Made by a program: the position numbers and the translations under genes. This document shows, piece by piece, positions 2,072 through 18,242 of a stretch of 64,000 nucleotides of DNA. The stretch is taken from assembly GCA_020849035.1 (NCBI GenBank), contig JADLHC010000130.1, forward strand, positions 8,214 through 72,213, written 5' to 3'. The notes under the pieces were generated by a model. The model was not told where the DNA came from. It ran no database searches and saw only the letters and a program-made list of their open reading frames with translations. This DNA comes from Planctomycetia bacterium. GTDB lineage: Bacteria > Planctomycetota > MHYJ01 > WSZJ01. How positions within the stretch are numbered: the stretch's first letter is position 1; the number at the start of each line of letters is the position of its first letter.

Positions 2072-2133
2072 GCCAGCATGCCTCCAACAGAGTACCGCGC
2101 TGTGCTCGTTCAAAACCAAGTGAGGAATGACGA

Positions 2134-3318
2134 CTATAGCACAAATTCGCCTGGGTCAGGCGCGCGCGGCGGCGGCGGCAGCTCGACCTTGGGCTGTGCG
2201 GGCGAGGGGGGAGGCCGGCCGAACAGGGTGTGTCGGACGTCGAGAAGCCCGACGGCGACGATGACGGCGACGAGGCCGAAGAGGGCTCCGAGAACGAGGA
2301 CGAGGTTGTAGCGGCGGGAGAGGAACAGGGGGCCCTCGCCGGGCTCGTCCGGTTCGGCGGGGTTGGTGGAGAGGCCGTGGGTTCCGGCGATGCGGCGGAA
2401 GTCGTTGAGATGGATGACGGGCTTGCCTGCCTTGAGGAACTGGAGCAGGACGCCGCGGACGGGGTAGTTTCGCTCGACCCACTTGTCGCTGTAGCCCGTC
2501 GGTATCAGTTTCCCGCCGGTGTAGTTCGAGCCGACGGACGCGAGGCCGCCTCCGACGTTCACGTAGCAGCGGATATTCCCCAGATCGCCCGCCGCTTTCG
2601 CGTACAGGTCCATGCGCTTCGAGATGGACGCGACGAGGGTTTTCTCCTCGATCTTCTCGATGCCGTTGCGGGCGATGGCGGCGCGGATGGCCTCGATGGA
2701 GGCCTTGTTGAGGCCGACGCCCTTGTCCTTGTCGCCGCCGATGGAAGCGGCGAGCGACCGGGTGCGGATCGCGCCGGCATCGAAGGCGGCTTTCTCCATG
2801 TCGAGCCAGGTGAACTCGGCCTGGTTGGCGCCAAAGGTCGAGGAGCCGAGGGACGTGACGACCAGCGGGCGGGCCTCGAGAGACTCGATGGCGGCGATGA
2901 CGGCCAGGTTGGCGCCGGGGAATGATCCGGTCATGCCGACGGCCACGAAGTCGCCCTTCTGCACCTTCGCCTCCCGCAGCCACGCGACGACGACGGCGGC
3001 GAGGTTGGGCTGCGTGGCGATCTGCTTGGCGCGGAGGTAGCCCTTGTCGGTCGTGAGCGGGCCGGACTGGTCGTCGGTGCCGATGAGGCCGGTGTGCTGC
3101 GGGTCCCGCTCGTAGTCGATCGCCAGCCCCGCACGCTTCCGGGCCACCCGGATCGCGTCCTGCCCGCGCTTCACGGACGCCACCGCCGCCTTCTTCTCGC
3201 GGTAGGCGTCCTCGCGCTTGTCGACCTGGAAGCGTTCGACGGCGGCCCAGGCGGTGAGGGCGAGGAGTGCGAGCCCTGCGAGGGTGGCTGGGGGGACTTT
3301 GCCTTCGCGGAATTTCAC
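2134..3318 (-). CDS. poly-gamma-glutamate system accessory membrane protein (putative)
   Basis: 394 aa with N-terminal and C-terminal hydrophobic helices; immediately downstream of pgsC with 4-bp overlap; resembles the accessory 'poly-gamma-glutamate system protein' that accompanies pgsBC in non-Bacillus loci (assignment from memory of that family, not verified). Confidence 0.5.
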   Translation of the reverse strand: MKFREGKVPPATLAGLALLALTAWAAVERFQVDKREDAYREKKAAVASVKRGQDAIRVARKRAGLAIDYERDPQHTGLIGTDDQSGPLTTDKGYLRAKQIATQPNLAAVVVAWLREAKVQKGDFVAVGMTGSFPGANLAVIAAIESLEARPLVVTSLGSSTFGANQAEFTWLDMEKAAFDAGAIRTRSLAASIGGDKDKGVGLNKASIEAIRAAIARNGIEKIEEKTLVASISKRMDLYAKAAGDLGNIRCYVNVGGGLASVGSNYTGGKLIPTGYSDKWVERNYPVRGVLLQFLKAGKPVIHLNDFRRIAGTHGLSTNPAEPDEPGEGPLFLSRRYNLVLVLGALFGLVAVIVAVGLLDVRHTLFGRPPPSPAQPKVELPPPPRAPDPGEFVL

Positions 3319-3908
3319 AGGACGGCGGCTCCGGTGAGGAGGATGAGGAGGAGGCGGACGAGGACGGAGGCCATGATGAGGGAGGAGATGGTCTGGACGA
3401 GGCCCTGGCGTTCCATCCAGTCGGCGATGAGGCCGGGGATGATGTAGCCGATGGGGGCGAGGACGATGGAGGTGCGGTCGTCGAGGCGGATGGGGAGGGC
3501 GCGGGCGAGGGCGCCGAGGGAGAAGGCGATGAGGATGATGATGACGGTGCGGCGGCGGCCGTAGATGAGCATGTAGCGGGAGAGGACGCGGACGACGCCG
3601 TAGGTGGCGAGGGCGACGGCGAGGGTGACGGCGAGGGTGCGGCCGGCGGCGAGGGGGGGCTGGGCGAGGGCGAGGGCGACGTAGCCGGGGACGATCATGC
3701 CCCCGGTGGCGAGCCCTAGGGTTTCGGAGAAGGCGAGGGAGACGACGAGCCCGAGGGCGATGGCCTCGATGAGCAGTTCGACGGTCGGCCCGCCGGGCGC
3801 GGCGGAGCCGGCGGCCCAGGCCGTCGAGGCGAAGAGGACCGTCGCGGCGGCAGCGCGCAGGAGCAGCCCGCGGGAGCCCCGAGCGCGGTCAGCTGGCGGC
3901 GGCGCCAT
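3315..3908 (-). CDS. pgsC: poly-gamma-glutamate biosynthesis protein PgsC/CapC
   Basis: Motifs GMIVPGYVALALAQP, MLIYGRRRTVIIIL, IIPGLIADWMERQGL match Bacillus CapC (GLVVPGYLGLVFNQP / MILYGRRKF / IVPGLIANTIQKQGL); multi-pass membrane protein; true start probably downstream of 3908 (non-ATG) because longest ORF overlaps pgsB by 20 nt. Confidence 0.85.
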   Translation of the reverse strand: MAPPPADRARGSRGLLLRAAAATVLFASTAWAAGSAAPGGPTVELLIEAIALGLVVSLAFSETLGLATGGMIVPGYVALALAQPPLAAGRTLAVTLAVALATYGVVRVLSRYMLIYGRRRTVIIILIAFSLGALARALPIRLDDRTSIVLAPIGYIIPGLIADWMERQGLVQTISSLIMASVLVRLLLILLTGAAVL

Positions 3909-5091
3909 GCCGGTCCTCCCCGCGGTTCTGGAAGTAGTGCACGATCGAGTGCCCCAGCCCCCCGATGTTCCCGACGCCGACCACCAGCGACCGCTCCGGC
4001 GTCGCGTCGAGCACCGCCTCGAACACGACGTTCACCTGCTCCCCGGCCAGGTCCCCCAGGTCCACGATCTTCTCTTCCGGCGCCCCGTGCCGGATCGCGC
4101 GGTTCACGACCGCCCCCGTCAGGTCGCCGGTCAGGATCACCGTGTCCACCGCCCCCATGTCCGATGCGATCATGTCCGCGAACTGCTCCGCCCGCTGGAT
4201 CCGGTCGCCGCGGGAATTGAAGATCACGATGGTCCGCCGCCCCGGCCGGGCGCCCACGCCGAGCCGACGGAAGATCCGCAGCGTCGAGTCCCGGTCGTTC
4301 GCGGCGAAGGCGTTCGCGAACTCGATCTCCTTCTGGAAGAAGCGGATGCGGTGGAGGCGCAGGACGCCCGGATCGGGCGTGCAGCGCCGCATCCCCTCGA
4401 GCGCCGCGGCGCGCGCGACGCCGCAGTGCATCGCCACCCGCAGGGCCAGCGCGACGTTCTCCCGGTGCTCGATGTAGTCGAACGTCCGGATCTCCTCCTC
4501 TGTCACCTCATCCTCGCCGCACGCGACGACCTTCGCCCCCGCCCCCGCCGCGCGCTCCTCCACGATCCGAAGGTGCTCCCGCTCGGCGGTGAAGACAAGC
4601 CCGCCGGGCGGAATGGTGGCGCAGAGGAACCGCGCGACGTCCTGCACGGTCGGCCCCATGACGTCGAGATGGTCGGCGCGGACGTTCGTGATGACGCCGA
4701 GCGTGGATTTCACGATCCGGTGCTCCGCCAGCCACTGGATGTGCGGCTGAAGCGCCATGCACTCGATCACGATCGCCTGGCACTGCTCCTGCGCGGCGCG
4801 CCGGAAGACCTTGAGCTGCTCGATGATGTTCGCACGCCCGGGGCGAGGGATGTGCTCCTCGCGGCCGTCCGGGAAGATCATCCGCGGCTCCGTCCCCGTC
4901 GTCTTGGCGAACGTGCGGATCCCGCCGGCCCGCAGCCCCGCCGCGATCAGCCGCGTCACGCTCGACTTCCCGCGCGTCCCGTTCACGTGGATCCGCGCCG
5001 GGATGGCGCGCACGCTGGCGAGGTGCCGCCGGTACTCCCAGATCCCCCCGGCCGCCAGGGCCCCGGCCAGCGACGCCGCGAGCACGCTCAT
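3889..5091 (-). CDS. pgsB: poly-gamma-glutamate synthase PgsB/CapB (Mur-ligase family amide ligase)
   Basis: N-terminal TM then EYRRHLASVRAIPARIHVNGTRGKSSVTRL matching CapB [30 protein letters not shown] P-loop region; 400 aa as expected. Confidence 0.9.
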   Translation of the reverse strand: MSVLAASLAGALAAGGIWEYRRHLASVRAIPARIHVNGTRGKSSVTRLIAAGLRAGGIRTFAKTTGTEPRMIFPDGREEHIPRPGRANIIEQLKVFRRAAQEQCQAIVIECMALQPHIQWLAEHRIVKSTLGVITNVRADHLDVMGPTVQDVARFLCATIPPGGLVFTAEREHLRIVEERAAGAGAKVVACGEDEVTEEEIRTFDYIEHRENVALALRVAMHCGVARAAALEGMRRCTPDPGVLRLHRIRFFQKEIEFANAFAANDRDSTLRIFRRLGVGARPGRRTIVIFNSRGDRIQRAEQFADMIASDMGAVDTVILTGDLTGAVVNRAIRHGAPEEKIVDLGDLAGEQVNVVFEAVLDATPERSLVVGVGNIGGLGHSIVHYFQNRGEDRHGAAAS

Positions 5092-5119
5092 GCCCGACAG
5101 CCTACACGCCCCCGGAACC

Positions 5120-6664
5120 TCACGGCCACAGGAACAGAAGCGAAAGCTCGAGGGTGTTCGAACTGCGGCGAAGGCGCCCCTCCGCGGCGGAACCCGTGCG
5201 CCCCGGAAGGTCCACCGTCCGGCGCTCCCGTTCCCAGGCCAGCTTCACCTCCGTGTCCGTCCCGATGACGTACCCCAGGTAGAGCCGGAACGCGTGACGC
5301 TGGTCCGTCCGGTCCGCGTAGGAGACGTCCTCCGACCGCGAATGGTCCGTCGTGTACCGACGCCAGGCGTACCGGTAGGAGCCCCCGAACATCACCCGCT
5401 TCACCCGCACGTCGGCCGCAATCCTCGGCGAATACTCGCGCCAGGACCGGTCCGTCTCCCCCCCGGACGCCATGCACCGCAGCCACTTCGCATCGAAGTC
5501 CAGCTCCAGCGACAGCCACTTCGCCGGCCGCACCGTGACGTCGAGCGCCGCACGGTGCGCGGAAGAGTCGCGCTCGTTGAACTTCGTGTTCCAGTCCCTC
5601 AGCTCCCAGGCGTAGGTGAGGCCCGTCGTCAGCGGCTTCCCCCACCGCACCCAGGCTTTCCCGCCGATCTCGTAGGCGTCGTAGTGCGCGTGCCCATGCT
5701 GCTGCCCCGGCGTCTCCGGCGGGTCGACGTTCCGGAGAACATGGTCGACCTCCCAGGTCCCGAACAGCCTGTAGTTCACGCCGGGAAGGACCTGGTGCCG
5801 GACGTAGGCTCCGAACGTGTCGGTGCTCAGGCGGTGATTCCGGAGGAACCACCGCTCGTCGAGCGTCCCGCCCACGAAAAACCGCCCGACCGGCGTCTCA
5901 GGCGTGATGATCTCCGCATCGAGGCTCGAGTCGATGTAGAAATCGTCCACCGACGCGATCCGGTCGTACTTGTCACGCGGGTGATTGTCGTTCCGCTCCT
6001 CCCAGTCGTGCGTTTCCACGTCGTTCAGCTCGGCCGCGTTGTCCGTGTAGCCGAACTTCAGCAGCGACCGCGTCGCCATCCAGAACGTGTCCCGGTGCGA
6101 ATCCGCCCCCGTCGTCGAGCCGTAGCTCTTCCCGGACGGCTTCGGCTCCTCGTACCGGAAACGCAGCACGAGGCCCGCCTTCGCATCCGCGGGCACCCGC
6201 AGGACCACCGCGTGCGAGCCGTCCTGCGGCAGCTCGATCACCAGCGAGTCCGCGACCCCCGGCACCCCGTCGATCCCCCCCTCGAACAGCGCGGTCCTGT
6301 GGGCCGTGGTCTTGAAGCGCTTCTTCTGCTCCGCCCCGCCGTCCACGGTCCAGTGGAGGGAGTAGCGGACCTCGGGCGCGGTGCGGTCCGCCATCTGGGG
6401 GCGGATCTGGACGAGGAGCCGGTTCTGGCCGCCGATCTTGAGCGTGCACTCGCCGCCCGGGGGCACGAACCAGCCGCGGAGCTCGCGGCCGCCCTCGTGG
6501 ACGCGCACCTCGCGGACGCCGATCTCGGGACGCGCGTCGGCCCAGCGCTGGCCGGGACGGGGGTCGGTGGCGCGAAGCCTGTCCTCCAGCCCCCCGGCCT
6601 GGGCCGAGGCGGCCGATGCGGTGACGAGGGAGATCAGGGCGGCGAGCGGGAGTAGGCGGATCAT
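5120..6664 (-). CDS. secreted protein, putative outer-membrane beta-barrel
   Basis: 514 aa; signal peptide MIRLLPLAALISLVTASAASAQA; C-terminal half rich in alternating aromatic/polar beta-strand-like segments (SYRYAWRRYTT, FRLYLGYVIGTDTEVKLAWE) ending ...LSLLFLWP; embedded between capA-like and pgsB. Confidence 0.5.
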   Translation of the reverse strand: MIRLLPLAALISLVTASAASAQAGGLEDRLRATDPRPGQRWADARPEIGVREVRVHEGGRELRGWFVPPGGECTLKIGGQNRLLVQIRPQMADRTAPEVRYSLHWTVDGGAEQKKRFKTTAHRTALFEGGIDGVPGVADSLVIELPQDGSHAVVLRVPADAKAGLVLRFRYEEPKPSGKSYGSTTGADSHRDTFWMATRSLLKFGYTDNAAELNDVETHDWEERNDNHPRDKYDRIASVDDFYIDSSLDAEIITPETPVGRFFVGGTLDERWFLRNHRLSTDTFGAYVRHQVLPGVNYRLFGTWEVDHVLRNVDPPETPGQQHGHAHYDAYEIGGKAWVRWGKPLTTGLTYAWELRDWNTKFNERDSSAHRAALDVTVRPAKWLSLELDFDAKWLRCMASGGETDRSWREYSPRIAADVRVKRVMFGGSYRYAWRRYTTDHSRSEDVSYADRTDQRHAFRLYLGYVIGTDTEVKLAWERERRTVDLPGRTGSAAEGRLRRSSNTLELSLLFLWP

Positions 6665-6728
6665 CGGGGCTCCTTGGGGATCACCGGGGCGCCCAGAGTA
6701 GAAGCTGGCGTCGCCACGTCAATGGTCG

Positions 6729-7370
6729 TCAGTCCCGGCCGACCCGTTCGAGCTCCAGCGTCGCGGCGGCCGTTCCCGCGCACCCCGGCGCCCGCAGCCA
6801 GTCCCACTCGTTCGGCGCCTCGAGGCGTCCGCGGACCCGCTCCCACTCGATCACCGCAACGTCGTCGAAGGCCACGTCGGCGACCGTGCCCTTCGGCGCC
6901 GCAGCCCGGAGGCGGATGCGGACGAAGCGCGACTTCGGCGGCCGGACCACGTCGAACGAGAACGGCTTCCAGGCCGGCCCCTCCGACCCCAGGCGCCCCG
7001 CCACCACGGTGGCGACCGGGGCGAGGGAAGGAAGCTCGCAGAAATCGCACTCGACTTCGGCCGTGGCGCCGCGGGGGGCGTTCCACCAGCCCGCGACCGT
7101 GAACCGATCGGGGACGGGGATCCGGAAGCGCATCGTCGCGTTCGACTCCGTTGCGCAGGCGAGGCGCAGGCAGGCGGCGCCGCTCCGGGGGTCATCCACC
7201 GAGATCCGCGCGCCTGCCCCGGGCGCCCAGGTCCCGGGCTCGAGCGCGTCCGCGTCGGCGTCCCCGTCCTCAAAGCCGCCGACCCGCAGCAGGTCCCGCC
7301 CCGACTCGAGCGGCGCCTGGCATCGCGCGTCGACGACATAGGTCGACGGGTCCCCGGGAGCGACGCGCAC
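6729..7370 (-). CDS. hypothetical protein
   Basis: 213-aa ORF co-directional and tightly spaced between capA-like gene and the beta-barrel gene; no signal peptide from this Met (start may be upstream non-ATG); no family recognised. Confidence 0.35.
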   Translation of the reverse strand: MRVAPGDPSTYVVDARCQAPLESGRDLLRVGGFEDGDADADALEPGTWAPGAGARISVDDPRSGAACLRLACATESNATMRFRIPVPDRFTVAGWWNAPRGATAEVECDFCELPSLAPVATVVAGRLGSEGPAWKPFSFDVVRPPKSRFVRIRLRAAAPKGTVADVAFDDVAVIEWERVRGRLEAPNEWDWLRAPGCAGTAAATLELERVGRD

Positions 7371-7400
7371 GGGCCGGTCCCCGGACAGGACGACCGTCCG

Positions 7401-8780
7401 TTACGAGGACGCCCGTTCCCCGGGCTCCAGGGCCACCTCGACACCGCCGGCGCGCCATGCGACGTCCACGCCTTCGGAGAGCGCCCCGACGCGCCGCGCC
7501 ACCCACCGCGCGACGGGCCCGGCCGCCGCCCGCACCCGGTAGTCGTCGTTGAGAATGGGGAAGAGCCTCGCGGCGGAGACGCGCCCGTCCTCGAAGTCGG
7601 CGACGAGGAGGAGCCCGGGAAGGGCCTCGTAGCGCGACTGGTCGAACGCGAAGTTCCCGAGGCAGCGCGCGACGAGGACGCCCTCGACGAGGGCGAGCCC
7701 CTGCGGCGTGTGAGCGTGGTGTCCGACGACCAGGGCGGCGCCCCCCCCGGCGGCCACGTACGCGGCGTCGCGGGCGCGCCGGGTCGGCCGGCTTGCGTAC
7801 TCCGTGCCGGTGTGGAGCGCGACGATGACCGGCGCCCTCCCGGCCGCCGCCAGCACGTCCGCGAGGATCGCCTCCGTTTCCATCGGCGCGGCGCCGCCGC
7901 GCCCGCCCTCCGCGAGCAGCGGGACGTCGCTTCCCCGGACGCCGCTGTAGGAGAGGAGGAGGAACTTCGCCGTGCCGGCCCTCAGCTCCGCGGGGCGCCG
8001 CGCGGCCGCCTCGTTCGCGCCCGCCCCGCACGAGAGGATCCCCCGCTTCCCCAGTTCCTCAAGCGTGCGCTTCAGCCCCGCCTCGCCGAAGTCCCAGCAG
8101 TGGTTGTTGCCGAGGGTGAACGCGTCCACGCCGGCGTCCGCGAAGGCGTCGAGCGCACCGGGGGGCGTGAGGAAATTGTGCTCCTTGCGGGACACGGGGT
8201 CGCCCGGCGCGTCGCCGACGACGGTCTCGAGGTTCAGCACGGCGAGGTCGGCTTCCCGCAGGACCGGAGCGACGTCCGCCAGCACGGCCGCGGCGTCGGC
8301 GTGAAGCGAGTCGGGCCTCAGGACCGGCGCGGGAGGGGACTCGATGGTGTCGGGTTTGAAGAAGCGCCGGGTCATCATGGCGTCCCCGCCGAAAACCAGG
8401 CGGACGCGGCCGGGGGCGCGGGCCCGGAGGCGGACCGTGCCGAGGTCCGCCGCGTCCTGCCCCGCGGGCAGGGCGAGGTCCGCGACGCGGAACTCGACGA
8501 AGAACCCCTCGGCGCCGACGCGGACGAGCGCGTTCCGGCGCGCCAGCGCGTCGATCCGGAACCAGCCGCGCTTGTCCGCGGCCGCCTTCCGGTCCTGGAC
8601 CGCGACTTCGGCCGCCACCCCGAACCCGTCCTCGTCCACCACCCGCCCGGTCAGCGTCACCGGCGCGGCCTTCCACGCCGCCAGCGCCTTCGCGTCGCGC
8701 GCAAGGATCTCCCCGCCGGTTTCGGCGGACGCGCACAGCGCGGCGAGCAGGACGGCGGCGATCGCCCTCATGCGGCGCAT
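7401..8780 (-). CDS. capA: CapA/PgsA-family poly-gamma-glutamate synthesis protein (metallophosphoesterase-like) with N-terminal carboxypeptidase-regulatory-like domain
   Basis: Signal peptide MRRMRAIAAVLLAALCASA; GNNHCWDFG and VVGHHAHTPQGLALVEGVLVARCLGNFAFDQ match CapA IVGHHPHVLEPIEVYNGTVIFYSLGNFVFDQ; N-terminal ~120 aa beta-sandwich-like (LTGRVVDEDGFGVAAEVAV). Confidence 0.85.
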   Translation of the reverse strand: MRRMRAIAAVLLAALCASAETGGEILARDAKALAAWKAAPVTLTGRVVDEDGFGVAAEVAVQDRKAAADKRGWFRIDALARRNALVRVGAEGFFVEFRVADLALPAGQDAADLGTVRLRARAPGRVRLVFGGDAMMTRRFFKPDTIESPPAPVLRPDSLHADAAAVLADVAPVLREADLAVLNLETVVGDAPGDPVSRKEHNFLTPPGALDAFADAGVDAFTLGNNHCWDFGEAGLKRTLEELGKRGILSCGAGANEAAARRPAELRAGTAKFLLLSYSGVRGSDVPLLAEGGRGGAAPMETEAILADVLAAAGRAPVIVALHTGTEYASRPTRRARDAAYVAAGGGAALVVGHHAHTPQGLALVEGVLVARCLGNFAFDQSRYEALPGLLLVADFEDGRVSAARLFPILNDDYRVRAAAGPVARWVARRVGALSEGVDVAWRAGGVEVALEPGERASS

Positions 8781-8792
8781 CCTACCCGCATG

Positions 8793-9917
8793 TCACAGCG
8801 GCCGGTCGTAGATCCGGTAGACCTTCGTCCGCTTCCCCCCGAACGCCTCGATCGTGTTGTTCATGACCGTGTTGTCCTCGAGGATCCAGGACATCTCGCA
8901 CTCCTGCCAGCCGCCCTTGAGCCCCGCCTGCATCGTCTCGATGTAGAAGATCGAGTCGAGCCCCCGGCGCTGGTACTCGGGGAGGATCCCCATCGTGATG
9001 TAGCGCAGGCGGCGGATCTTCCGCGCGTTCAGCAGCCAGGTAAGCCAGCCGAGCGGGAAGAGCGAGCCGTTCATCTTCCTGAGGACGAAGTTATAGTCGG
9101 GAAGAGAGAGGGAGAATCCGGCGGGCTTGCCCTGGACTTCCGCGAACAGCAGGAATTCCGGGCGGACGATCCTGCGGAAGTCGTTCGCGACGACCTCGAA
9201 CTCCGCCTCGGTCATCGGGACGGCGCCCCAGTTGTTCGCCCAGGCCCTGTTGTAGACCTCGCGGAGGAGTGCGAGCTCCTGCTCCACCCGCGACATGTCC
9301 ACGGGGCGCACGACGATCCCCTCGCGCTCCTTGAGCCGTTGCGCGACGCGGAACATCTTCTCCGGCGGCGTGAAGGACGGCCGGTCCACGAGCCACGCCC
9401 AGAGGTCCTTCGCCTTGGCGAAGCCGCAGCCTTCCACGAGCGGCACGTATCGTTTCGGGTTGTACGCCATCATGAACGTCGGCGGCTCGTGGAACCCCTC
9501 GACGAGCAGCCCGCACTCTTCGTTCGTCGAGAACGAGCACGGCCCGCGCTGGATCGTCATCCCGCGCTCCTTGAGCCAGGCGCCCGAAGCGCCGAACAGC
9601 GCCGCCGCGGTCTCCACGGAGTCCTCGCACTCGAAGAACCCCCAGAATCCCGCGCCGTCCTTCCACGCGTCGAGGTGCGCCCGGTTGACGCACGCCCCGA
9701 TCCTCCCCACGACGCGCCCGTCGCGCCGCGCGAGGAACAGCTTCGTCTCCGCGTGGCGGTGGAAGGGGTGCCCGTCCGAAAGCAGCTTCCTGACCTCGCC
9801 CAGCAGGGGAGGGACCCAGTTCGCGTCGCCGCGGTAGATGGCCCACGGGAGGCGGAGGAAGGCCTTGAGGTCCGCGGAGGTCGTGACGGGGGAGACTGAG
9901 AGGGTCACCGCTGCCAC
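8793..9917 (-). CDS. GNAT-like N-acyltransferase family protein (candidate bacterial ceramide synthase-like)
   Basis: 374 aa conserved 'GNAT family N-acetyltransferase' architecture (WGAVPMTEAEFE ... ITMGILPEYQRRGLDSIFY); GTG start at 9917 (cac on plus strand); adjacent to Spt-like gene. Confidence 0.7.
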   Translation of the reverse strand: MAAVTLSVSPVTTSADLKAFLRLPWAIYRGDANWVPPLLGEVRKLLSDGHPFHRHAETKLFLARRDGRVVGRIGACVNRAHLDAWKDGAGFWGFFECEDSVETAAALFGASGAWLKERGMTIQRGPCSFSTNEECGLLVEGFHEPPTFMMAYNPKRYVPLVEGCGFAKAKDLWAWLVDRPSFTPPEKMFRVAQRLKEREGIVVRPVDMSRVEQELALLREVYNRAWANNWGAVPMTEAEFEVVANDFRRIVRPEFLLFAEVQGKPAGFSLSLPDYNFVLRKMNGSLFPLGWLTWLLNARKIRRLRYITMGILPEYQRRGLDSIFYIETMQAGLKGGWQECEMSWILEDNTVMNNTIEAFGGKRTKVYRIYDRPL

Positions 9918-10026
9918 GAAGGAAAACGAAATGGGAAAGACGAAAAGGAAAAAAGGAAAAGCTCCGGCATGCCGTGCTTTTCGTTTTTCGTGTTTCCCTT
10001 TTCGTTTTTCGTTTGGTCTTCCTTTC
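9916..10026. repeat. AT-rich imperfect palindrome (GAAAA/TTTTC-rich arms, central GCATGC)
   Basis: cgaaggaaaacgaaatgggaaagacgaaaaggaaaaaaggaaaag ... ctccggcatgccgtg ... cttttcgtttttcgtgtttcccttttcgtttttcgtttggtcttcctttcg; sits between stop of 10032-11219 and start of 8793-9917; strikingly AT-rich in a 70% GC background. Confidence 0.6.
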
Positions 10027-10031
10027 GCCCT

Positions 10032-11219
10032 CTAGATAACCCCGGTCGCCTTCCCCACCGCCTGGATCGTCCCGAGCGCCTGTTCGAGGATCTCGTTCGT
10101 GTGGCTCGCCATGTAGCTCGTCCGGATCATCGTCCGGTTCGGCTCCACCGCCGGCGGGATCACAGGGTTCACGAACACGCCCTGCTGCAGCAGCCCGAGG
10201 TAGAAGTCGAACGTCTTGCGCATGTCGCCCACCAGGATCGGGATGATCGGCGACTGAGTGTGCCCCGTGTCGAACCCCGCGCCCTTCAGCCCCGCCTGCA
10301 TCTTCTTCGTGTTCGCCCAGAGCCGGTCGCGCAGCTGGGGGTACTCCGTCTCGATGATGTCGCACACCGCCAGCACCGTCGCCGCGTTCGACGCCGGGAT
10401 CGCCGCGCTGAATATCATCGCCCGCGAGTGGTGCTTGATCCAGTGGATCACCTGGTCCGGCCCCGCGATGAATCCGCCCAGCGAGGCGAACGACTTCGAG
10501 AACGTCCCCATCACGAGGTCCACCTCGTCCTCCAGGCCGAAGTGCTCCGCCGTGCCGCGGCCGTGCTCGCCCATCACGCCGACCCCGTGCGCGTCGTCCA
10601 CCATCAGCCGGAAGCCGAACTTCTTTTTCAGCTTCACGATCTCGGGCAGGTTCGCGAGATCCCCCTCCATCGAGAACACCCCGTCCACGATCAGGAGGCA
10701 CCTCTCAGGGTCCTTCACGTCCTTCAGGACCCGCTCGAGGTCCTCCATGTCGTTGTGCCGGTACCGCTTCGTCTCCCCGAACGCGAGGTAGCACCCGTCC
10801 ACGATCGACGCATGGTCCGTCTTGTCGATGACCACCGTGTCCCCTCGCCCCACCAGCGCCGTGATCGTCCCCAGGTTCGTCTGGAACCCCGTCGAGAACA
10901 CCAGCGCCGACTCGCGCTTCATGAATTTCGCCAGCCGCCGCTCGACGTCCTCGTGGAGAGTGAGGGTGCCGTTGAGGAAGCGCGACCCTGAGCAGCTCGT
11001 GCCGAACTCCTGCACGGCCTTGAGCGCCGCTTCCTTGACCTTGGGGTGGTGCGTCAGCCCGAGGTAGTTGTTCGAGCCGCACATGATGATCTCGCGGCCC
11101 TTGTAGATCGCCTTGGGGCCCATGGACTTGTCGAGCGCGCGGAAATAGGGGTACCAGCCCTCGCGCTGGGCGACCCGGGCTTCCTGCCAGTCGAACGCCT
11201 TCTTGAAGATATCGACCAC
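10032..11219 (-). CDS. alpha-oxoamine synthase family PLP enzyme (serine palmitoyltransferase-like / 8-amino-7-oxononanoate synthase-like)
   Basis: 395 aa; class-II aminotransferase motifs incl. PLP-lysine region GTFSKSFASLGGFIAG, DDAHGVGVMG; N-terminus FDWQEARVAQREGWYPYFRAL typical of Spt/Kbl/BioF family. Confidence 0.85.
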   Translation of the reverse strand: MVDIFKKAFDWQEARVAQREGWYPYFRALDKSMGPKAIYKGREIIMCGSNNYLGLTHHPKVKEAALKAVQEFGTSCSGSRFLNGTLTLHEDVERRLAKFMKRESALVFSTGFQTNLGTITALVGRGDTVVIDKTDHASIVDGCYLAFGETKRYRHNDMEDLERVLKDVKDPERCLLIVDGVFSMEGDLANLPEIVKLKKKFGFRLMVDDAHGVGVMGEHGRGTAEHFGLEDEVDLVMGTFSKSFASLGGFIAGPDQVIHWIKHHSRAMIFSAAIPASNAATVLAVCDIIETEYPQLRDRLWANTKKMQAGLKGAGFDTGHTQSPIIPILVGDMRKTFDFYLGLLQQGVFVNPVIPPAVEPNRTMIRTSYMASHTNEILEQALGTIQAVGKATGVI

Positions 11220-11311
11220 GGGGCGGATTTCTAACCGATCCGGGAAGGGGGCGCAAGGATCGGCTCCTTCGACGCTGGCGCGTCGGCGCGCCTCTCCCTA
11301 CCATTCCGCCC

Positions 11312-12274
11312 GTGCGGTACCTCGTCACCGGCGGCACCGGGTTCGTCGGCTCCCACCTGGTCGACGCCCTGCTCGCGCGGGGCGACGCGGTGACGGCGCT
11401 CGTGCGCGACCCGAACCGGCTGCGGTGGCTGGAAGGCCGGGACGTCCGGATCGCGCCCGGCGACACGGCGCGCGGAGTCGGGCTCGACGCCGCGCTCGAC
11501 GAGGCGGACGCCGTCATCCACGTCGCGGGCGTGATCAAGGCGCGGACGGAGTCGGAGTTCCTCGAGGGGAACGCGGAGGCGACGCGGAAGCTCCTGGTGG
11601 CGTGCGCGAAGTCGAAGCGTCCGCCGGGCGCGGTGGTGGTGGTGACGTCGCTGGCGGCCTGCGGGCCGGTGGCGGAGCGCGTGCTGCGCGAGTCGGACCC
11701 GTGCCGGCCCGTGTCGGCGTACGGGCGCAGCAAGGCCGCGGCCGAAACGGTCTGTGCGGAGTTCGCGGGGCGGCTGCCCGTCGTCGTCGCCCGCCCTCCG
11801 GTCGTCTACGGCCCGCGCGACGAGGCCGTGCTCGAGATCTTCCGGATCGTCTCCTGGAGACTCAAGCCTCTTCCCAACCCCGCCCAGCGCCTCTCGATCG
11901 TGCACGTCCGGGACCTGGCTGCAGGGCTGATCGCGGCGGCCGGGCGGGGGAAGGCGGGGGAGACGTACTTCCTGTCGCATCCGGAGGAGATCACGGCGCG
12001 GGGGCTGGCCGAGCGCGTGGAGGAGGCGGTCGGCACCCCGGCGCTGGCCGTCGGCATCCCGGGAGGGATCCTCAGGGCCGCGGCCGCCGTCTCCGAGACC
12101 GTGTCCGGCGGCCGGTCCATCTTCAATCGCGACAAGGCCGCGGAAATGCTGGCCGCCGGGTGGGCCTGCGACCCTTCCGCCGCGCGGGAGAAGCTCGGGT
12201 GGGAAGCGCGGATCGGGCACGTGGACGGGCTGCTGGAGACGGGGCGGTGGTACCGGGAGCGGGGGTGGCTGTAG
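11312..12274 (+). CDS. NAD-dependent epimerase/dehydratase (SDR) family protein
   Basis: 320 aa; Rossmann GGTGFVGSHLVDAL at N-terminus, catalytic YGRSK motif; divergent from Spt-like gene. Confidence 0.85.
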   Translation: MRYLVTGGTGFVGSHLVDALLARGDAVTALVRDPNRLRWLEGRDVRIAPGDTARGVGLDAALDEADAVIHVAGVIKARTESEFLEGNAEATRKLLVACAKSKRPPGAVVVVTSLAACGPVAERVLRESDPCRPVSAYGRSKAAAETVCAEFAGRLPVVVARPPVVYGPRDEAVLEIFRIVSWRLKPLPNPAQRLSIVHVRDLAAGLIAAAGRGKAGETYFLSHPEEITARGLAERVEEAVGTPALAVGIPGGILRAAAAVSETVSGGRSIFNRDKAAEMLAAGWACDPSAAREKLGWEARIGHVDGLLETGRWYRERGWL

Positions 12275-12380
12275 CGCGCCCCGCCCTGCGTTTCCGTTCC
12301 TCCCCTTTCTTGACCCTCCTTTGGCCCATTGCTAGCCTCTTTCCCCTTCCACCTTTCCACTCCAGGATCAGGAGCCTGAC

Positions 12381-13499
12381 ATGTCGCAGCAGCCGAAGAC
12401 CGCCGACCTGTCGAAGTCGGACGCGGAGTTCAGCATCGTGATCGAGGCGTCCAAGGACTCGAAGATCGCGGAAGCGACCGCGGGGTTTGCGAAGACGTTT
12501 ACGCTGGAGTCGAAGGTGGCGGAGCAGATCCTGAAGTCGGCGCCGATCATCTTCCTGTCGCGGCTGACGAAGCAGGACATCCGGGTGCTGAAGCCGAAGC
12601 TGATGGAGCTTTCGAATGCGGGGATCGAGTTCCGGATCACGGAGAGGCCGCAGGAGAGGATTCCGAAGGTGAACTGGCCGATCAAGCCGTCGTTCGGGAC
12701 GGCGGACGGCGGGCAGCTGGTGACGGCGGTTTCGTTCATCTGGGACAACAACGCGTTCGTGTGCCCGGCGTGCGGCGAGACGTTCGTGTTCCGGAGGGTG
12801 GGGAAGCCGAAGCCGACCCCTGCGCCGATGGAGGCTGCGGCCGCGCCCGCGGTCGCGCCTGCGGCTGCGCCTCCGGCGAAGCCCGCGGCGGCGCCTGCGC
12901 CCGCGGCAAAGCCGGCGCCGGCGCCCGCGAAGCCCGCGGCGGCCCCGGCGAAACCCGCGCCGGCGCCCGCCAAGCCCGCGGCAAAGAAGCCCGTCGAGGA
13001 GGAAGATCTCGGCACGGTGGACCTGCTGGACGAGGTTCCGACGCTGGACCTCGACGACGTCAAGCCCCTCGACGACATCGCGCCGCTGGACGACGTCAGG
13101 CCCCGCGACGAGATCGAGGAGGTGGAGGAGGTCCCGGCGAAGCCCGCCGCCAAGGGTCCTGCGCCAAAGGGGCCGGCGCCGAAGGGACCGCCGCCCAAGG
13201 GGCCGGTCAAGCCCGGCGGCATGATCAAGCCCTCCGTCGACCTGGACGAGGTGGAGGTCGCAGGCGGCGAGGACGAGCTCGCAAGCGTCTTCCTCAACCG
13301 CATTCCCAGCCCGAAGGACCAGGACACCGCTGCGAAGATCATCGCGGAGGTCCGCAGCTGCCCGATGAAGGAAGCCAAGGAGCTTGCGGCCCGAATGGTG
13401 ATCCCCGTCGTGAAGGACATCCCGATGAAGGAGGCGGAGGAGATCCTCGCCAAGTTCCAGAAGGCGAAGATCGCGGGCCGTATCACGAAGAAGAAGTAG
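12381..13499 (+). CDS. hypothetical protein with two ribosomal-L7/L12-C-terminal-like domains, Pro/Ala-rich linker and CxxC motif
   Basis: EFSIVIEASKDSKIAEATAGFAKTFTLESKVAEQILKSAPIIF...LKPKLMELSNAGIEF aligns with L7/L12 CTD ([42 protein letters not shown]...LKKALEEAGAEVEV); second copy near C-terminus (CPMKEAKELAARMVIPVVKDIPMKEAEEILAKFQKAKIAG); (PAKPA)n low-complexity middle. Confidence 0.55.
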   Translation: MSQQPKTADLSKSDAEFSIVIEASKDSKIAEATAGFAKTFTLESKVAEQILKSAPIIFLSRLTKQDIRVLKPKLMELSNAGIEFRITERPQERIPKVNWPIKPSFGTADGGQLVTAVSFIWDNNAFVCPACGETFVFRRVGKPKPTPAPMEAAAAPAVAPAAAPPAKPAAAPAPAAKPAPAPAKPAAAPAKPAPAPAKPAAKKPVEEEDLGTVDLLDEVPTLDLDDVKPLDDIAPLDDVRPRDEIEEVEEVPAKPAAKGPAPKGPAPKGPPPKGPVKPGGMIKPSVDLDEVEVAGGEDELASVFLNRIPSPKDQDTAAKIIAEVRSCPMKEAKELAARMVIPVVKDIPMKEAEEILAKFQKAKIAGRITKKK

Positions 13500-13551
13500 A
13501 GGTTCCTGCGATCCCGGAAGGGCCGGCCACCGCGGCCGTCAGGAGACTCCC

Positions 13552-14820
13552 ATGCGAATCCTCCGCCCGACGATCCTCCTCCTGGTCTCCGCTTCCGCCG
13601 CCCTCGCCCAGGAGCCGAAGACGGGTCTGGTGGACGGGGAGTTGAAGGGCTGCCGGTACCAGCTGTCCGTGCCGGACACGTGGAAGAAGACCGATGCGGG
13701 GGCGTACTGGCTGTACGTGACGTTTCCGCCGGGGCCGCACTCGGCGAAGGACTACGGGCACCTGTGGCGGGGTGTGAAGGGGCCGAAGCCGCACATCGGG
13801 CTGTGCCTGGACGGATCGGCGTCGGCCTCCGAGGTTCCGGCGGTGATCGAGAAGGTGCGCAGCGAGTACGGGTTCGACCCGGACCACGTCTTCTGCGTGA
13901 GCTACAGCGAGGGGACTGTCAAGGCGATCGACTTCGTCGTGGCGAACGCCGACATGCTGGCGGGGTGGGTGATCCTGCAGCCTTCGCTGGCGAACCGGGA
14001 GCCGAAGGCGGGGGGGAAGAGCGTTCCCGTCCTGATCATGAACGACAAGGCGTGCACCTATTCGCCGCCGTTCCAGGCGGAGGGGCTGAAGGACAAGCTG
14101 ATCGGGCTGGGGTACGAGGCGACGCTGGTCATGACGGAGGATCCGGCCAACAAGGACGGATGGCCGGTGAAGGACATGTCGAAGATGTTCGAGTGGACGA
14201 CGGGCCTGGTCCCGGCGCGGGCGGACGCCGTCTTCGACGAGGCCGCGGCCTGGCTGGCCGACGCGGGCAAGGACACGGAGCATCGTCCGAAGCTGCGCGC
14301 GGCGCTGAAGAAGGCGCTCGCGCTCTACGGGGGCGACATCTCCCCCGGCGGCGCGAAGGCGGGCGACGACGCGGTCTCCGCCTCGCTCAAGGACGGGCTG
14401 GCGTCCGGCAAGGAGATCAAGGGCGGGCTCAAGGGGCAGATCGCCCTCGTCGCCGCGGCCAGGGGGAAGAAGGTCGAGGCCGGGTCGCTGGTGATCTGCG
14501 ACAGCGCCGACTTCGACACGATCGAGGACAGCCTCGTCATCTGCTCGGGGGACGTGAAGGCGAACAAGGTCAAGGGCTCGGTGATCATCGCGAAAGGCGC
14601 GGTCACGATCGCCAAGGACGGCATGTCCTCGCTCGTCCACGCCGGGGGGCACGTCAAGTTCGGCACGACCCTCGAGGACTGCACGATCCTCGCGCAGGGC
14701 GGCGCCGAAGCCGCCGGCAAGGCGAAGAACAACTGGTTCGTGAACACGGCGGACGTGAAGATCAAGTCGAACGAGGCCGCCCGGACGGTGAAGAAGCTGA
14801 AGCTGCCGGGCGGGAAGTAG
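13552..14820 (+). CDS. secreted alpha/beta-hydrolase-like protein with C-terminal Gly/Lys-rich beta domain
   Basis: 422 aa; signal peptide MRILRPTILLLVSASAALAQ; esterase-like block HVFCVSYSEGT; no closer assignment. Confidence 0.5.
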   Translation: MRILRPTILLLVSASAALAQEPKTGLVDGELKGCRYQLSVPDTWKKTDAGAYWLYVTFPPGPHSAKDYGHLWRGVKGPKPHIGLCLDGSASASEVPAVIEKVRSEYGFDPDHVFCVSYSEGTVKAIDFVVANADMLAGWVILQPSLANREPKAGGKSVPVLIMNDKACTYSPPFQAEGLKDKLIGLGYEATLVMTEDPANKDGWPVKDMSKMFEWTTGLVPARADAVFDEAAAWLADAGKDTEHRPKLRAALKKALALYGGDISPGGAKAGDDAVSASLKDGLASGKEIKGGLKGQIALVAAARGKKVEAGSLVICDSADFDTIEDSLVICSGDVKANKVKGSVIIAKGAVTIAKDGMSSLVHAGGHVKFGTTLEDCTILAQGGAEAAGKAKNNWFVNTADVKIKSNEAARTVKKLKLPGGK

Positions 14821-14824
14821 CGCC

Positions 14825-16282
14825 TCAGCGCGACTTCGCCTTCACGACCACGACGACCAGCACGTCGCCCGACGGTCGCTCCACGGCCGAGAAGCCGGCC
14901 TTCAGGTGCAGCCAGCGCTTCCCCTGGTCCTGTTCCTCGGCGGCCACGACGGGGAGCGCCTTGAGCGCCGTCTTCCCCCACGTCGCGCTCTCGACCTCCA
15001 CGGACGCCGGGTCGCCGAACGCCCGAGGCAGCTCGATCCGGTCGCACACTTTCATCGCCATGCCGTCGCCGTCCTTGCGGAACGGGTCGCAGCACCAGAC
15101 CCAGGCCGAGTCCGCCGACACGCGGAAGGTGACGCGGAGGTTCTTCCCGTCCGGCTTCACCTCCACGGACTGCGGGAGCGTGCCCGGGGATGCGGCGAAC
15201 GGCCGCAGGGCGGGGTCGCCGTAGAGAATGCCGCCGGTGGCCCCGTCGAGCATCAGGTCGCGCACGGCGTCCAGCCCGTTGCGGGGAGTGCGGGCGCCGT
15301 CCACGACCGCGGGTGGGACGATCTCCTTTTCCCCGAAACCGAGGTATCCGAGCGTGACCTTCGCCCAGTCGGCGCGGCGCGACTCGCCGAGGGAGGCGCC
15401 TGCGAGGACGCGCTCGAAGTCGATGCTGAGCTCCGGCCCGGCGGGGCGCGGGTTCACGTAGGCCACGTAACCCGTCGCGCCGGCCTTGATCACGGACAGG
15501 GCGAAGCTGCGCTCGGGCGCGATCGCCTCGATCGTGTGGCGGATGGTGTCCGGTTCGTAGGTCTCGTTGTGCCAGCGCAAGGCCACCCCGGTGTGGCAGG
15601 CGTAATTGAAGACGACGGCGGGGAAGAGGCTGACTCTCGCGACGTCCTCGGCGCGCGGACCGGTCCCGATCTCCCAGGGCATGCCGTGCCCGCCGAACAT
15701 CACGGCGCCGCGCCCCCCCAGCGACGGGAGGTTGGCGTCGATGAAGGCCTGGTCGCGGCCGTGCTTGCCGTCCGGCGCGCGGAACGCAAGGCGGCGCGAC
15801 GCGAACTTCAGCGTCCCCGCGGCATACGGCTGCTCGTCCGCGACGCAGCCGCCGTCTCCGCCCCAGACCACGGCCTCGCCGACGGTCCGGGGGCGCTCCA
15901 TCGAGGAAACCCGGACGATGTTCGCGACGAACGCCTTCGCGTCCTCCGGCGTGGCTCCCGTGATAAAGCCGTACCCGAAGTCCACGAACGGGTCGGCGTC
16001 CACCTGCGAGGCGACGCGCAGGAACCGCCGCGCGAGATTAATGTCGAGCTCCTCCGGGCGCAGCACGATCGCCACGTGAACCGGCTTCAGTTCCTTCAGC
16101 TTCGGCAGGATCGTGTCCGGCTGCGCCGGGTCGAACGCAACGGGCGTGCCCGCCTTTCGGAACTCGGCCATCGCCGCGGCCGCCGCGTACCAGGGGTCCC
16201 TGGAGTCCACCGACGTCAGCACGACGTAGTCCCCGGCGAAGCAGGGAAGGGCGCAGGCGAGGAGGGAAGCGGCGAGGCGCAT
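14825..16282 (-). CDS. secreted hypothetical protein (possible caspase/gingipain-like His-Cys fold)
   Basis: Signal peptide MRLAASLLACALPCFAG at internal Met 16282; GGHGMPWE ... NYACHTG spacing reminiscent of clan CD peptidases (weak). Confidence 0.45.
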   Translation of the reverse strand: MRLAASLLACALPCFAGDYVVLTSVDSRDPWYAAAAAMAEFRKAGTPVAFDPAQPDTILPKLKELKPVHVAIVLRPEELDINLARRFLRVASQVDADPFVDFGYGFITGATPEDAKAFVANIVRVSSMERPRTVGEAVVWGGDGGCVADEQPYAAGTLKFASRRLAFRAPDGKHGRDQAFIDANLPSLGGRGAVMFGGHGMPWEIGTGPRAEDVARVSLFPAVVFNYACHTGVALRWHNETYEPDTIRHTIEAIAPERSFALSVIKAGATGYVAYVNPRPAGPELSIDFERVLAGASLGESRRADWAKVTLGYLGFGEKEIVPPAVVDGARTPRNGLDAVRDLMLDGATGGILYGDPALRPFAASPGTLPQSVEVKPDGKNLRVTFRVSADSAWVWCCDPFRKDGDGMAMKVCDRIELPRAFGDPASVEVESATWGKTALKALPVVAAEEQDQGKRWLHLKAGFSAVERPSGDVLVVVVVKAKSR

Positions 16283-16367
16283 GGGAGGCTCCGGATGGTT
16301 GGTCCACACCCTCTATGCCGCCGGCGTCCCGGGTCCGTTCCGGGAAACGGGAATCCCCGTGAACGGG

Positions 16368-18179
16368 CTACTTCTTCGCGGCGGGCTCGAGCTTGGGCGC
16401 CTTCTCCCCCTGCTGGATCGTCACGAAATGGTCCGCCGGCACGTCCTTGAACTCCTGGACGGTCAGGGAGGCGTCCGGCCAGCGCACCGTCACCCTGTCA
16501 GCCTTCTTAGCCGTCCCGAGCCCGAAGTGCGCCTCCAGCGCGTCCTGGTGGTTCCCCAGGCCGCTTCCGCAGCGGATCTCCCGCGTCATCGTCAGGCCGC
16601 CCGCGACGACCGTGATTCGCGCGCCGACCCCCGCGCGGTTCGCGCCGCGGCCGGTGAGCCTCACGTTGAGCCAGTGGTTCTGCGTCCGGGCCGCGTGCTC
16701 GTTGAGAAAGAGCCCGATGTCGTTGGTCTTGATCCCGCCCATGTACTTGTCCCGGTGCTCCTGGCCGAGCCGCATGAACGACCGTCCCGCGGCGATGTCG
16801 AGGTCCCCGTCCCGGTCGACGTCGCCCAGCGAGAGATCGCCGCACCCCTCCCAGTTGAACCCTGCCGCGTCGGTCACTTCCTCAAACGTCCCGTCCCCCT
16901 TGTTGCGGTAGAGGCGCAGGAACTGCCCGTCCGGGTAGTCACCCGCGCCCAGCAGCAGGTCCAGCCAGCCGTCGTTGTCGAAGTCCCCCCACGCCACGTG
17001 CAGGTCAGCGTACTGGAAGTTCCGCGCGTCGCGGAACTCACGCTTCGGCAAGGCGTCCCACACCGGCACCCGCTTGAAGGCCCACCCCTCCTTCTCGCCC
17101 TGGTTGATCAGAAGGCTCGGCGGGTCGCTCGCCTCGCCCGCCCAGGCGTGCGCGATCTCGCCGAGGAAACAGTCGAGGTCGCCGTCGTTGTCGAAGTCGC
17201 CCACAGCGCAGTCGAACGTATTGCCGTTCGACCGGAACGGCTGCTCCGGTGGCCGCCTCATTTCCGGCGGGTACTTTCCGTGCGTGATGTCGTCCCCGGC
17301 AAACCGGGTCGCCATCCCCACCTCCTCGAAAGTCCCGTCCCCACGGTTCTTCCACAGCAGGTTCCACTGCCGTCCGTAAGCCATCTCCATCAGGTCCATC
17401 CGGCCGTCGTTGTTCCAGTCCGCGTGCGTCACGCCATAACTCGGCCGCGCACTCTTCGGCGTCCCCGGCTCCGCTTCAAGCCACATTCCCGCGGCCTTCG
17501 TCACGTCCGAGAAGCCGCCCCGGCCGTCGCCCCTCCACAGCCGGTCCGGCCCGCAGCCGTACAGCACGCCGTACTGGCGGTACTCGCGGCCCTCGAAGAG
17601 GTCGAGCTTCCCGTCGTTGTCGAAGTCGCAGATCGCCAGCGACGACGCCGGCCCCGCCGACTCCGGCTTCGTGAACTCTGAGGCGGGGGCCGCCCTGAAG
17701 CGCCCCTTTCCGTCGCCGAGGTACACGCGGCTGCGCAGGCCGTGGTCGCACTCGGGGACGGTGACCCACTCGCCCTTTTCCTGGTCGAGCGTCTCCCAGT
17801 TCGAGTGGACTCCCCAGAGCGCGTCGGTCGCGCCGTCGTTGTTCACGTCGGCGAAATACAGGTACGCCGGCACGAACTTCTGCTTCTTCGCGTTCGCGGT
17901 GTCGGCCTTCCCGTCCTTGAGCGGCGTGATCGTCACCTCGGGGAACTCGATCCCGCTGTCCTTCAGTTCCTCGAACCTCCCCTTGCGGTTCAGGAAGATC
18001 CGCTCGCGCTCGATGCAGAGGTCGAGACGCCCGTCGCCGTCCACGTCGGCGAGGACGCAGTCCTTTGCGCTCACGCCCTCGAGCCCGGACGTCTTCGCGG
18101 CGTTCGTGAACCAGGGGTCGCCGGCGCGCACGGAGGCGGCGGCGAGGAGCAGCGCGGGCAGGACGAGTCTCGTGTTCAT
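16368..18179 (-). CDS. CRTAC1-family protein (FG-GAP/VCBS repeats + ASPIC/UnbV domain)
   Basis: Starts MNTRLVLPALLLAAASVRAG (signal); repeated DxDxDG (DVDGDGRLD, DFDNDGKLD, DFDNDGDLD, DFDNDGWLD, DVDRDGDLD) and C-terminal RCGSGLGNHQDALEAHFGLG UnbV/ASPIC signature; upstream 390 codons of the listed ORF are artefact. Confidence 0.85.
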   Translation of the reverse strand: MNTRLVLPALLLAAASVRAGDPWFTNAAKTSGLEGVSAKDCVLADVDGDGRLDLCIERERIFLNRKGRFEELKDSGIEFPEVTITPLKDGKADTANAKKQKFVPAYLYFADVNNDGATDALWGVHSNWETLDQEKGEWVTVPECDHGLRSRVYLGDGKGRFRAAPASEFTKPESAGPASSLAICDFDNDGKLDLFEGREYRQYGVLYGCGPDRLWRGDGRGGFSDVTKAAGMWLEAEPGTPKSARPSYGVTHADWNNDGRMDLMEMAYGRQWNLLWKNRGDGTFEEVGMATRFAGDDITHGKYPPEMRRPPEQPFRSNGNTFDCAVGDFDNDGDLDCFLGEIAHAWAGEASDPPSLLINQGEKEGWAFKRVPVWDALPKREFRDARNFQYADLHVAWGDFDNDGWLDLLLGAGDYPDGQFLRLYRNKGDGTFEEVTDAAGFNWEGCGDLSLGDVDRDGDLDIAAGRSFMRLGQEHRDKYMGGIKTNDIGLFLNEHAARTQNHWLNVRLTGRGANRAGVGARITVVAGGLTMTREIRCGSGLGNHQDALEAHFGLGTAKKADRVTVRWPDASLTVQEFKDVPADHFVTIQQGEKAPKLEPAAKK

Positions 18180-18242
18180 CGCCCCAGAATAGCACCGGCG
18201 AGGCGGCTTGCGCCGGAAAGGGCGGACCGCGAAGATGCGCAC

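Follow-up and report, generated by a model that had tools for sequence, protein, structure and literature searches.

A candidate ceramide biosynthesis locus in a Planctomycetia bacterium

Do three adjacent genes on a planctomycete contig belong to the bacterial pathway for ceramide synthesis? Bacterial sphingolipids were long considered rare, and the genes of the pathway were defined only in 2021–2022. The trio lies in a 64,000-nucleotide stretch of contig JADLHC010000130.1 from a Planctomycetia bacterium (hereafter the window), and encodes a pyridoxal phosphate (PLP)-dependent alpha-oxoamine synthase, a GNAT-type acyltransferase and an SDR of the epimerase/dehydratase family (Table 1). An initial annotation had taken these genes for the bacterial ceramide pathway, that is, serine palmitoyltransferase (Spt), a bacterial ceramide synthase (bCerS) and a ceramide reductase (CerR). 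This view is supported by the placement of the synthase among Spt enzymes, by the homology of the other two proteins to bCerS and CerR and by synteny, and the three genes probably specify the central bacterial route to the ceramide backbone.

The three genes and their predicted products

The open reading frames (ORFs) of the initial annotation are exact in coordinates and strand, and they are real genes. The GC content at third codon positions is 0.95 in each of them, a strong coding signal (the GC content of the window is about 70%), and genes called independently on contig L099, which is 99.97% identical, had the same products of 374, 395 and 320 amino acids. The window is collinear with L099 over positions 1–19306; a stretch of 60% GC at 1–2134 was considered as a breakpoint and rejected, since the collinearity spans it. 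The promoters of the spt-like and cerR-like genes are presumed to lie in the divergent region between them; a promoter scan of positions 3000–12600, this region included, found no sigma-70 consensus site.

Family models and solved structures both placed the synthase nearest to Spt. It matched Pfam Aminotran_1_2 (E 5.5e-59), and its top NCBIfam model was NF047600 (Spt, CFB group) at 516.8 bits, followed by a BioF/Kbl-related subfamily (403), betaproteobacterial Spt (391), BioF (368), Kbl (363), alphaproteobacterial Spt (326) and HemA (234 bits); the first six of these scores all fall short of the trusted cut-off of their model. The top match in the PDB was Sphingobacterium multivorum SPT (3a2b; 380 bits, residues 18–388), with the SPTs of Sphingomonas wittichii and S. 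paucimobilis at 300 and 278 bits, cysteate acyltransferases at 273 and 259, Kbl at 234–255 and BioF at about 190 or less. Taking family and structure matches together, Spt is favoured over Kbl, BioF and HemA by at least 100 bits. Compared directly with the Sphingomonas parapaucimobilis Spt, the synthase is 38% identical (E 4e-91). We also built a neighbour-joining (NJ) tree of 40 sequences with our own distance code, using references drawn from annotated loci (Kbl beside tdh, BioF within bio operons, and HemA). The synthase grouped at 89% bootstrap with the Sphingomonas Spt and GNAT-adjacent synthases, in a clade free of Kbl, BioF and HemA.

The active-site residues agree with this placement. 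Lys242 (in GTFSKS, the Schiff-base lysine), Asn50/51, His136, Asp209/His211 and Arg366 align with those of the S. multivorum and S. paucimobilis SPTs. Ahead of the conserved Arg the loop sequence is I-P-P-A-V-E-P, which resembles that of S. multivorum SPT (V-S-P-A-V-P) rather than that of Sphingomonas SPT (R-P-P-A-T-P). Ala272, 30 residues after Lys242, occupies the position of Lys281 in the sulfonolipid enzyme SulA; according to Radka and colleagues, every known cysteate acyltransferase has Lys at this position where Spt has Ala, and they proposed it as a discriminator (PMC9304779). The synthase is predicted to be a serine palmitoyltransferase of the Bacteroidota/Myxococcota type. It falls with Spt and not with BioF, Kbl or HemA, which agrees with the Spt assignment of the initial annotation. 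As a separate observation, a Priestia megaterium plasmid (NZ_CP137804.1, L086, positions 6001–7215) encodes an alpha-oxoamine synthase that is 54% identical to the window synthase and groups with it in the NJ tree with weak support; it adjoins acyltransferase-family and methyltransferase genes, and no bCerS-like or CerR-like gene lies nearby.

The GNAT protein is less well covered by family models: Pfam Acetyltransf_1 is borderline in its C-terminal half (20.4 bits, cut-off 20.7), no NCBIfam model matches and a PDB sequence search came back empty. Of the comparisons with curated libraries, that of the predicted fold alone was informative. A tblastn search of a plasmid collection found a full-length match to Escherichia coli YghO (35% identity, E 1e-70, 99% coverage) as well as matches to an S. 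parapaucimobilis N-acetyltransferase and a protein on Roseomonas plasmids, and by BLASTP the Sphingomonas N-acetyltransferase is 35% identical over residues 4–374 (E 5e-79). The Sphingomonas locus runs NAD(P)H-binding protein, acyl carrier protein (ACP), synthase, ATP-binding protein, LptF, LptG, desaturase, N-acetyltransferase. Its layout is that of Caulobacter CC_1168–CC_1152, where CC_1164 is cerR, CC_1163 acpR, CC_1162 spt, CC_1156/CC_1155 LptF2/LptG2 and CC_1154 cerS (PMC11324152). The Geiger laboratory treats CC_1154, yghO (ECD_02850) and Swit_3908 as one N-acyltransferase gene, aca, and likewise CC_1164 and ECD_02852 as one reductase gene (PMC9386255); PMC9393093 uses the names bcerS for CCNA_01212 and cerR for CCNA_01222.

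Among the candidates scored, 2604 proteins from many phyla were related to the GNAT protein at E ≤ 0.001. The nearest, at 84–88% identity, come from metagenome-assembled genomes (MAGs) of Planctomycetota, and relatives in Myxococcaceae share about 47% identity. An identical GNAT protein occurs in the sequencing runs SRR34519444, SRR31646711 and SRR35011325, the first of which is the source of contig L099. An AlphaFold model built with 16 homologues (pLDDT 87, pTM 0.86) had tandem-GNAT enzymes as its top structural matches (TM about 0.6, E about 1e-13), namely glucosamine N-acetyltransferase, MAB_4324, the clavulanate tandem GNAT and mycothiol synthase; the protein carries a QRRGLD motif at residue 316. 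Because of the full-length homology to YghO and the Sphingomonas protein, and of the tandem-GNAT fold in the model, we assign it on sequence and modelling to the bCerS/YghO family as a two-lobed GNAT acyltransferase. It is predicted to be a bacterial ceramide synthase, and the end-to-end homology to published homologues of CC_1154 (YghO, Sphingomonas) agrees with the bCerS type assigned initially. One relative, the 638-residue protein P0009, covers 99% of the GNAT protein at 39% identity and is some 260 residues longer than the family length; it may be a fusion.

The third protein matched Pfam Epimerase (E 1.6e-31) and carries the motifs GGTGFVG (GxxGxxG) at residue 7 and YGRSK (YxxxK) at residue 137. 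It is 30% identical end to end to the Sphingomonas homologue of CC_1164 (E 6e-32), 29% to the E. coli CerR homologue (E 1e-24) and 40% to a Streptomyces plasmid SDR encoded beside a bCerS-like gene (E 4e-55). Among its plasmid matches, several of the strongest are SDRs encoded next to a bCerS-like gene (Aureispira 168 bits, Streptomyces 138, Rubrobacter 126). An NJ tree put the rhodobacterial CerR proteins inside the clade of syntenic SDRs to which the window SDR belongs, and HpnA and a haloarchaeal SDR fell outside in 200 of 200 replicates; with these two as the only outgroups, the tree is support rather than proof. The Bacteroides 3-ketosphinganine reductase BT_0972 was rejected as a reference, being a 31-kDa classical SDR of another subfamily. 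We regard the SDR as the CerR-like, predicted 3-keto reductase of the ceramide pathway, the type that had been suggested for it at the outset. Its sequence opens straight into the Rossmann motif, as does that of its Sphingomonas homologue, and no signal peptide is evident; Caulobacter CerR is reported to be periplasmic (PMC11087976).

Spt, bCerS and CerR make up a known pathway whose genes are often clustered (PMC11334938). The locus itself provides gene identity, homology and synteny; for substrates, step order, product and localisation we follow the characterised homologues. By this analogy Spt would form 3-ketosphinganine by condensing L-serine with the thioester of a long-chain acyl group, most likely acyl-CoA, the tandem-GNAT bCerS would N-acylate the amine with acyl-CoA, and the extended SDR CerR would use NAD(P)H to reduce the 3-keto group, yielding dihydroceramide. 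Which of the last two steps comes first is disputed even for Caulobacter (PMC11087976; PMC11324152), the order of the Klein laboratory being Spt, bCerS, CerR.

The S. multivorum SPT takes palmitoyl-CoA directly. Two subgroups of Spt have been described, an alpha-, beta- and gammaproteobacterial one that needs a dedicated ACP and synthetase, and a Bacteroidota/deltaproteobacterial one (PMC9386255). No match to AcpR (E. coli, Sphingomonas) or AasR (E. coli) was found by tblastn at E ≤ 1e-3 in the whole 64-kb window, and Pfam scans of the window genes detected no ACP or acyl-ACP synthetase, so the lack of such genes noted initially for the immediate neighbourhood extends to the entire window. Since the synthase resembles the Bacteroidota/Myxococcota subgroup, this is to be expected and is no weakness of the ceramide assignment. 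The rhodobacteria-type five-gene system (Spt, AcpR, AasR, CerR and bCerS) was rejected for this locus, as neither AcpR nor AasR was found in the window.

Gene order across genomes

We then asked how the three genes are arranged elsewhere. A synteny scan based on the GNAT alignment, with one genome per species, comprised at least 599 relatives, and the counts given here come from the 80 best loci. Within 8 kb of the GNAT gene there is a synthase gene at 61 of the 80 loci, an SDR gene at 47 and both at 45; the synthase gene is mostly directly upstream of the GNAT gene on the same strand. The commonest layout is that of the window, with synthase and GNAT genes in this order on one strand and the SDR gene divergent upstream (18 loci, rising to 20 with the addition of two whose synthase-GNAT gap is wider). 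The 80 loci are spread over Zixibacteria, Ignavibacteria, Planctomycetota, Gemmatimonadota, Acidobacteriota, Myxococcota, Nitrospirota, Bacteroidota and other groups. Because both partners are found near the GNAT gene in 45 of 80 genomes, the grouping of the trio is not due to chance.

The same grouping is seen on plasmids. An Aureispira plasmid (L102) has a trio layout identical to that of the window, and on a Streptomyces plasmid (NZ_CP108712.1, L087, positions 4772–9298) synthase, GNAT and SDR genes form one operon; homologous SDR genes adjoin bCerS-like genes on Streptomyces, Rubrobacter, Nonomuraea and Aureispira replicons. The genes that follow these clusters differ. The Streptomyces operon is followed directly by a condensation-domain gene, suggesting further modification of the lipid in that actinomycete. 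At locus L098 (7800–12781; GNAT 51% identical) the order SDR-synthase-GNAT is followed by PAP2_3 and Rce1-like genes, and in Bacteroides finegoldii (L096, 4989–6952) a homologous SDR gene is followed by a PAP2 phosphatase gene; either arrangement may reflect a head-group step. The PAP2_3 family presumably includes sphingolipid head-group transferases.

Weighing the alternatives

Several observations weigh against the ceramide assignment. The synthase reaches the trusted cut-off of none of the NCBIfam Spt equivalogs (516.8 against 640 bits for NF047600), and it is therefore filed in the wider Spt clade and not in the narrow NF047600 equivalog. Pairwise, the SDR is no closer to rhodobacterial CerR (76–100 bits) than to HpnA (84–101 bits); since these scores do not separate the two, its assignment relies on the tree and on synteny. 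For all three proteins the comparison with Caulobacter runs via published homologues from Sphingomonas and E. coli. Genes for head-group attachment and transport were not found in the window: no LptF/LptG paralogue, lipid kinase, CDP-alcohol transferase or PAP2 gene was detectable in its 64 kb. Finally, our literature search returned no paper showing ceramides in a cultured planctomycete.

A further point of this kind is that sequence fixes neither the amino-acid substrate (serine, alanine or glycine) nor the chain lengths, which leaves room for the strongest alternative, namely that the same enzyme types make a lipid not based on serine, the candidates being a capnine-type sulfonolipid made from cysteate and a 1-deoxy-ceramide-like lipid built on alanine or glycine. 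Substrate choice is not settled by sequence alone, 1-deoxy-ceramides belong to the described bacterial pathway (PMC11334938), and cysteate acyltransferases have the Spt fold and score 259–273 bits against the window synthase. However, S. multivorum SPT scores about 100 bits above the cysteate enzymes, the window synthase has Ala272 where known SulA enzymes all have the diagnostic Lys281 (PMC9304779), and no cysteate synthase gene was found in Pfam scans of the window. Identity of the synthase with SulA/CapB was rejected on the basis of this alanine, and the non-serine alternative as a whole appears unlikely.

The only unusual feature of the locus is a set of poly-gamma-glutamate synthesis genes that starts 12 nt past the GNAT stop codon and runs along the same strand. 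Their order is capA-like, OMP-like, pgsB (TIGR04012, 410 bits), capC and a gene for a 394-residue protein without a family; the OMP-like gene encodes 514 amino acids with a predicted outer-membrane barrel and a weak MtrB/PioB match. The close relatives L084, L085 and L099 retain the order spt, bcerS, capA-like, OMP-like, pgsB, capC. A terminator scan found no terminator-like site between the GNAT and capA-like genes, the only two such sites being at about 5883–5904 in the OMP-like gene and at 4600–4612 in pgsB. In this planctomycete lineage spt and bcerS might be co-transcribed with capA-like, OMP-like, pgsB and capC, making ceramide and an anionic surface polymer one unit, although we hold this to be quite improbable. 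If it were so, the sphingolipid might anchor the polymer in the membrane, or both might be co-regulated in envelope remodelling.

The same short gap without a terminator-like site, and the retained order from spt to capC, would also suit an alternative in which spt and bcerS belong to a larger poly-gamma-glutamate operon and the lipid is an anchor or partner of the polymer rather than a bulk membrane lipid. The distribution of the linkage argues against this. It is confined to close relatives, whose GNAT proteins are at least 77% identical, and even among these it is interrupted in L097 (77% identity) by an insert of about 8 kb between the GNAT and capA-like genes; in none of the 80 more distant genomes did we find it. 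We know of no precedent for an operon that joins such a lipid to poly-gamma-glutamate, which we also counted against it, and regard this explanation as having little chance of being correct.

Two observations concern these genes in their own right. The capA-like (PGA_cap) gene at 6729–8780 (minus strand) has an in-frame TAA at 7401–7403, which splits it into ORFs of 459 and 213 amino acids; the codon is GAA (Glu) in L099, where the gene is intact (680 amino acids), and the L084 gene is likewise intact (683 amino acids). The TAA is either a nonsense mutation in the strain or a sequencing error. The L097 insert (2633–9373) holds a sigma-70-like gene and a dozen small ORFs without a family.

The weakest alternative, in which the synthase is a housekeeping Kbl or BioF with GNAT and SDR genes as unrelated neighbours, draws on the general likeness of alpha-oxoamine synthases (368 bits on the BioF model, 363 on Kbl), but these scores are under both cut-offs and well under the Spt score, the NJ tree keeps the synthase out of the Kbl, BioF and HemA groups, neither tdh nor bio genes adjoin it as they do at the reference Kbl and BioF loci, and the trio travels together across many phyla, so that it is barely credible.

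Relation to known systems and significance

The ceramide assignment invites comparison with the Caulobacter crescentus pathway of Spt (CCNA_01220/CC_1162), bCerS (CCNA_01212/CC_1154) and CerR (CCNA_01222/CC_1164) (PMC9393093; PMC11087976), which those two papers, where they cite its discovery, credit to Olea-Ozuna 2021 and Stankeviciute 2022. The window encodes the same three enzyme families, with full-length homology via the Sphingomonas and E. coli homologues (Spt 38%, bCerS 35%, CerR 29–30% identity). Unlike Caulobacter, it has no AcpR, AasR or LptF/LptG paralogues and no nearby ceramide kinase or phosphoglycerate head-group genes, and its trio is contiguous, whereas Caulobacter bcerS lies several genes away from spt. 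The E. coli YghO locus (BL21 ECD_02850–02854; PMC9386255) is similar in having YghO (35% identical to the GNAT protein), Spt and an epimerase-family SDR, but it is of the rhodobacterial five-gene type with AcpR, AasR and LptF/LptG paralogues. In the course of these comparisons we noticed a complete rhodobacterial-type sphingolipid cluster in E. coli PN43 (NZ_MG591698.1, L083, positions 573–11128) by glcC, with yghO and genes for a fatty acyl-AMP ligase, an epimerase-family SDR, ACP, an Spt-like synthase and LptG/LptF paralogues. Such a non-K-12 E. coli cluster has already been reported in BL21 (PMC9386255), and it bears on the choice of an expression host.

With S. multivorum SPT (PDB 3a2b, 8guh) the window synthase shares the V/I-x-P-A-V loop and the Ala at the SulA Lys281 position, while coming from another phylum and scoring below the CFB-group cut-off. 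In Bacteroidota sphingolipid producers the three genes are not clustered (PMC11334938). The sulfonolipid enzyme SulA/CapB (PDB 7u7h, 28eh) has the same fold and condensation chemistry, and differs by its score of 259–273 bits and by the diagnostic lysine, which is Ala in the window synthase. Closest in gene content are the clusters of Black Sea MAGs and of the Streptomyces and Aureispira plasmids, which equal the window in this respect and in many cases in order and orientation too. They differ downstream, where PAP2_3 and Rce1-like genes or a condensation-domain gene are found, the poly-gamma-glutamate genes being present in the window lineage alone.

Just downstream of the SDR gene, at 12381–13499 (plus strand), there is an ORF for a Pro/Ala-rich protein of 372 amino acids without a Pfam or NCBIfam match, and an ORF of similar size is found at the same position in L084, L085 and L099. 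The far half of the window (40113–63983) looks like a variable or defence-type region, with local GC down to 0.64–0.65 (Table 1). Scanning the window for Rfam families and tRNAs gave no match.

Table 1. Features of the window, in coordinates of the 64,000-nucleotide stretch
Feature	Position	Strand	Basis or remark
spt-like gene; PLP-dependent alpha-oxoamine synthase, 395 aa	10032–11219	-	Pfam, NCBIfam, PDB match, NJ tree
bcerS-like gene; tandem-GNAT N-acyltransferase, 374 aa	8793–9917	-	homology to YghO/Sphingomonas protein, AlphaFold fold, synteny
cerR-like gene; extended SDR (epimerase/dehydratase family), 320 aa	11312–12274	+	Pfam Epimerase, motifs, homology, synteny
divergent intergenic region spt/cerR, 92 nt	11220–11311	.	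gene coordinates
poly-gamma-glutamate synthesis module	2134–8780	-	directly downstream of GNAT gene, 12-nt gap, same strand
YhcG/DUF1016 PDDEXK nuclease	40113–41132		
S8 subtilase, 2223 aa	42070–48741		
CHAT-TPR protein	49932–52556		
ARPP-1 protein	53534–54478		
Peptidase_M78 (IrrE-like) gene, also HTH domain	58368–59483		
HNH_2 endonuclease genes, two	59510–60655, 61362–62285		between the Peptidase_M78 genes
Peptidase_M78 (IrrE-like) gene, second	62868–63983		

A Black Sea survey found Spt-like genes in 40 phyla, frequently adjacent to genes for bCerS and CerR, and 138 MAGs of Planctomycetota were among the carriers (PMC11334938). The same cluster is already known from hundreds of genomes, Planctomycetota included, and because Spt-like genes have been reported from so many phyla the locus is a good but unsurprising candidate that leaves the current picture of the pathway unchanged. 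Surveys predict producers in about 40 phyla, nearly all of them uncultured. Against this background the locus is a clean, complete and contiguous example of the ACP-independent version of the predicted pathway in a probable Planctomycetota genome, and it would suit heterologous expression or lipidomics on planctomycete ceramides.

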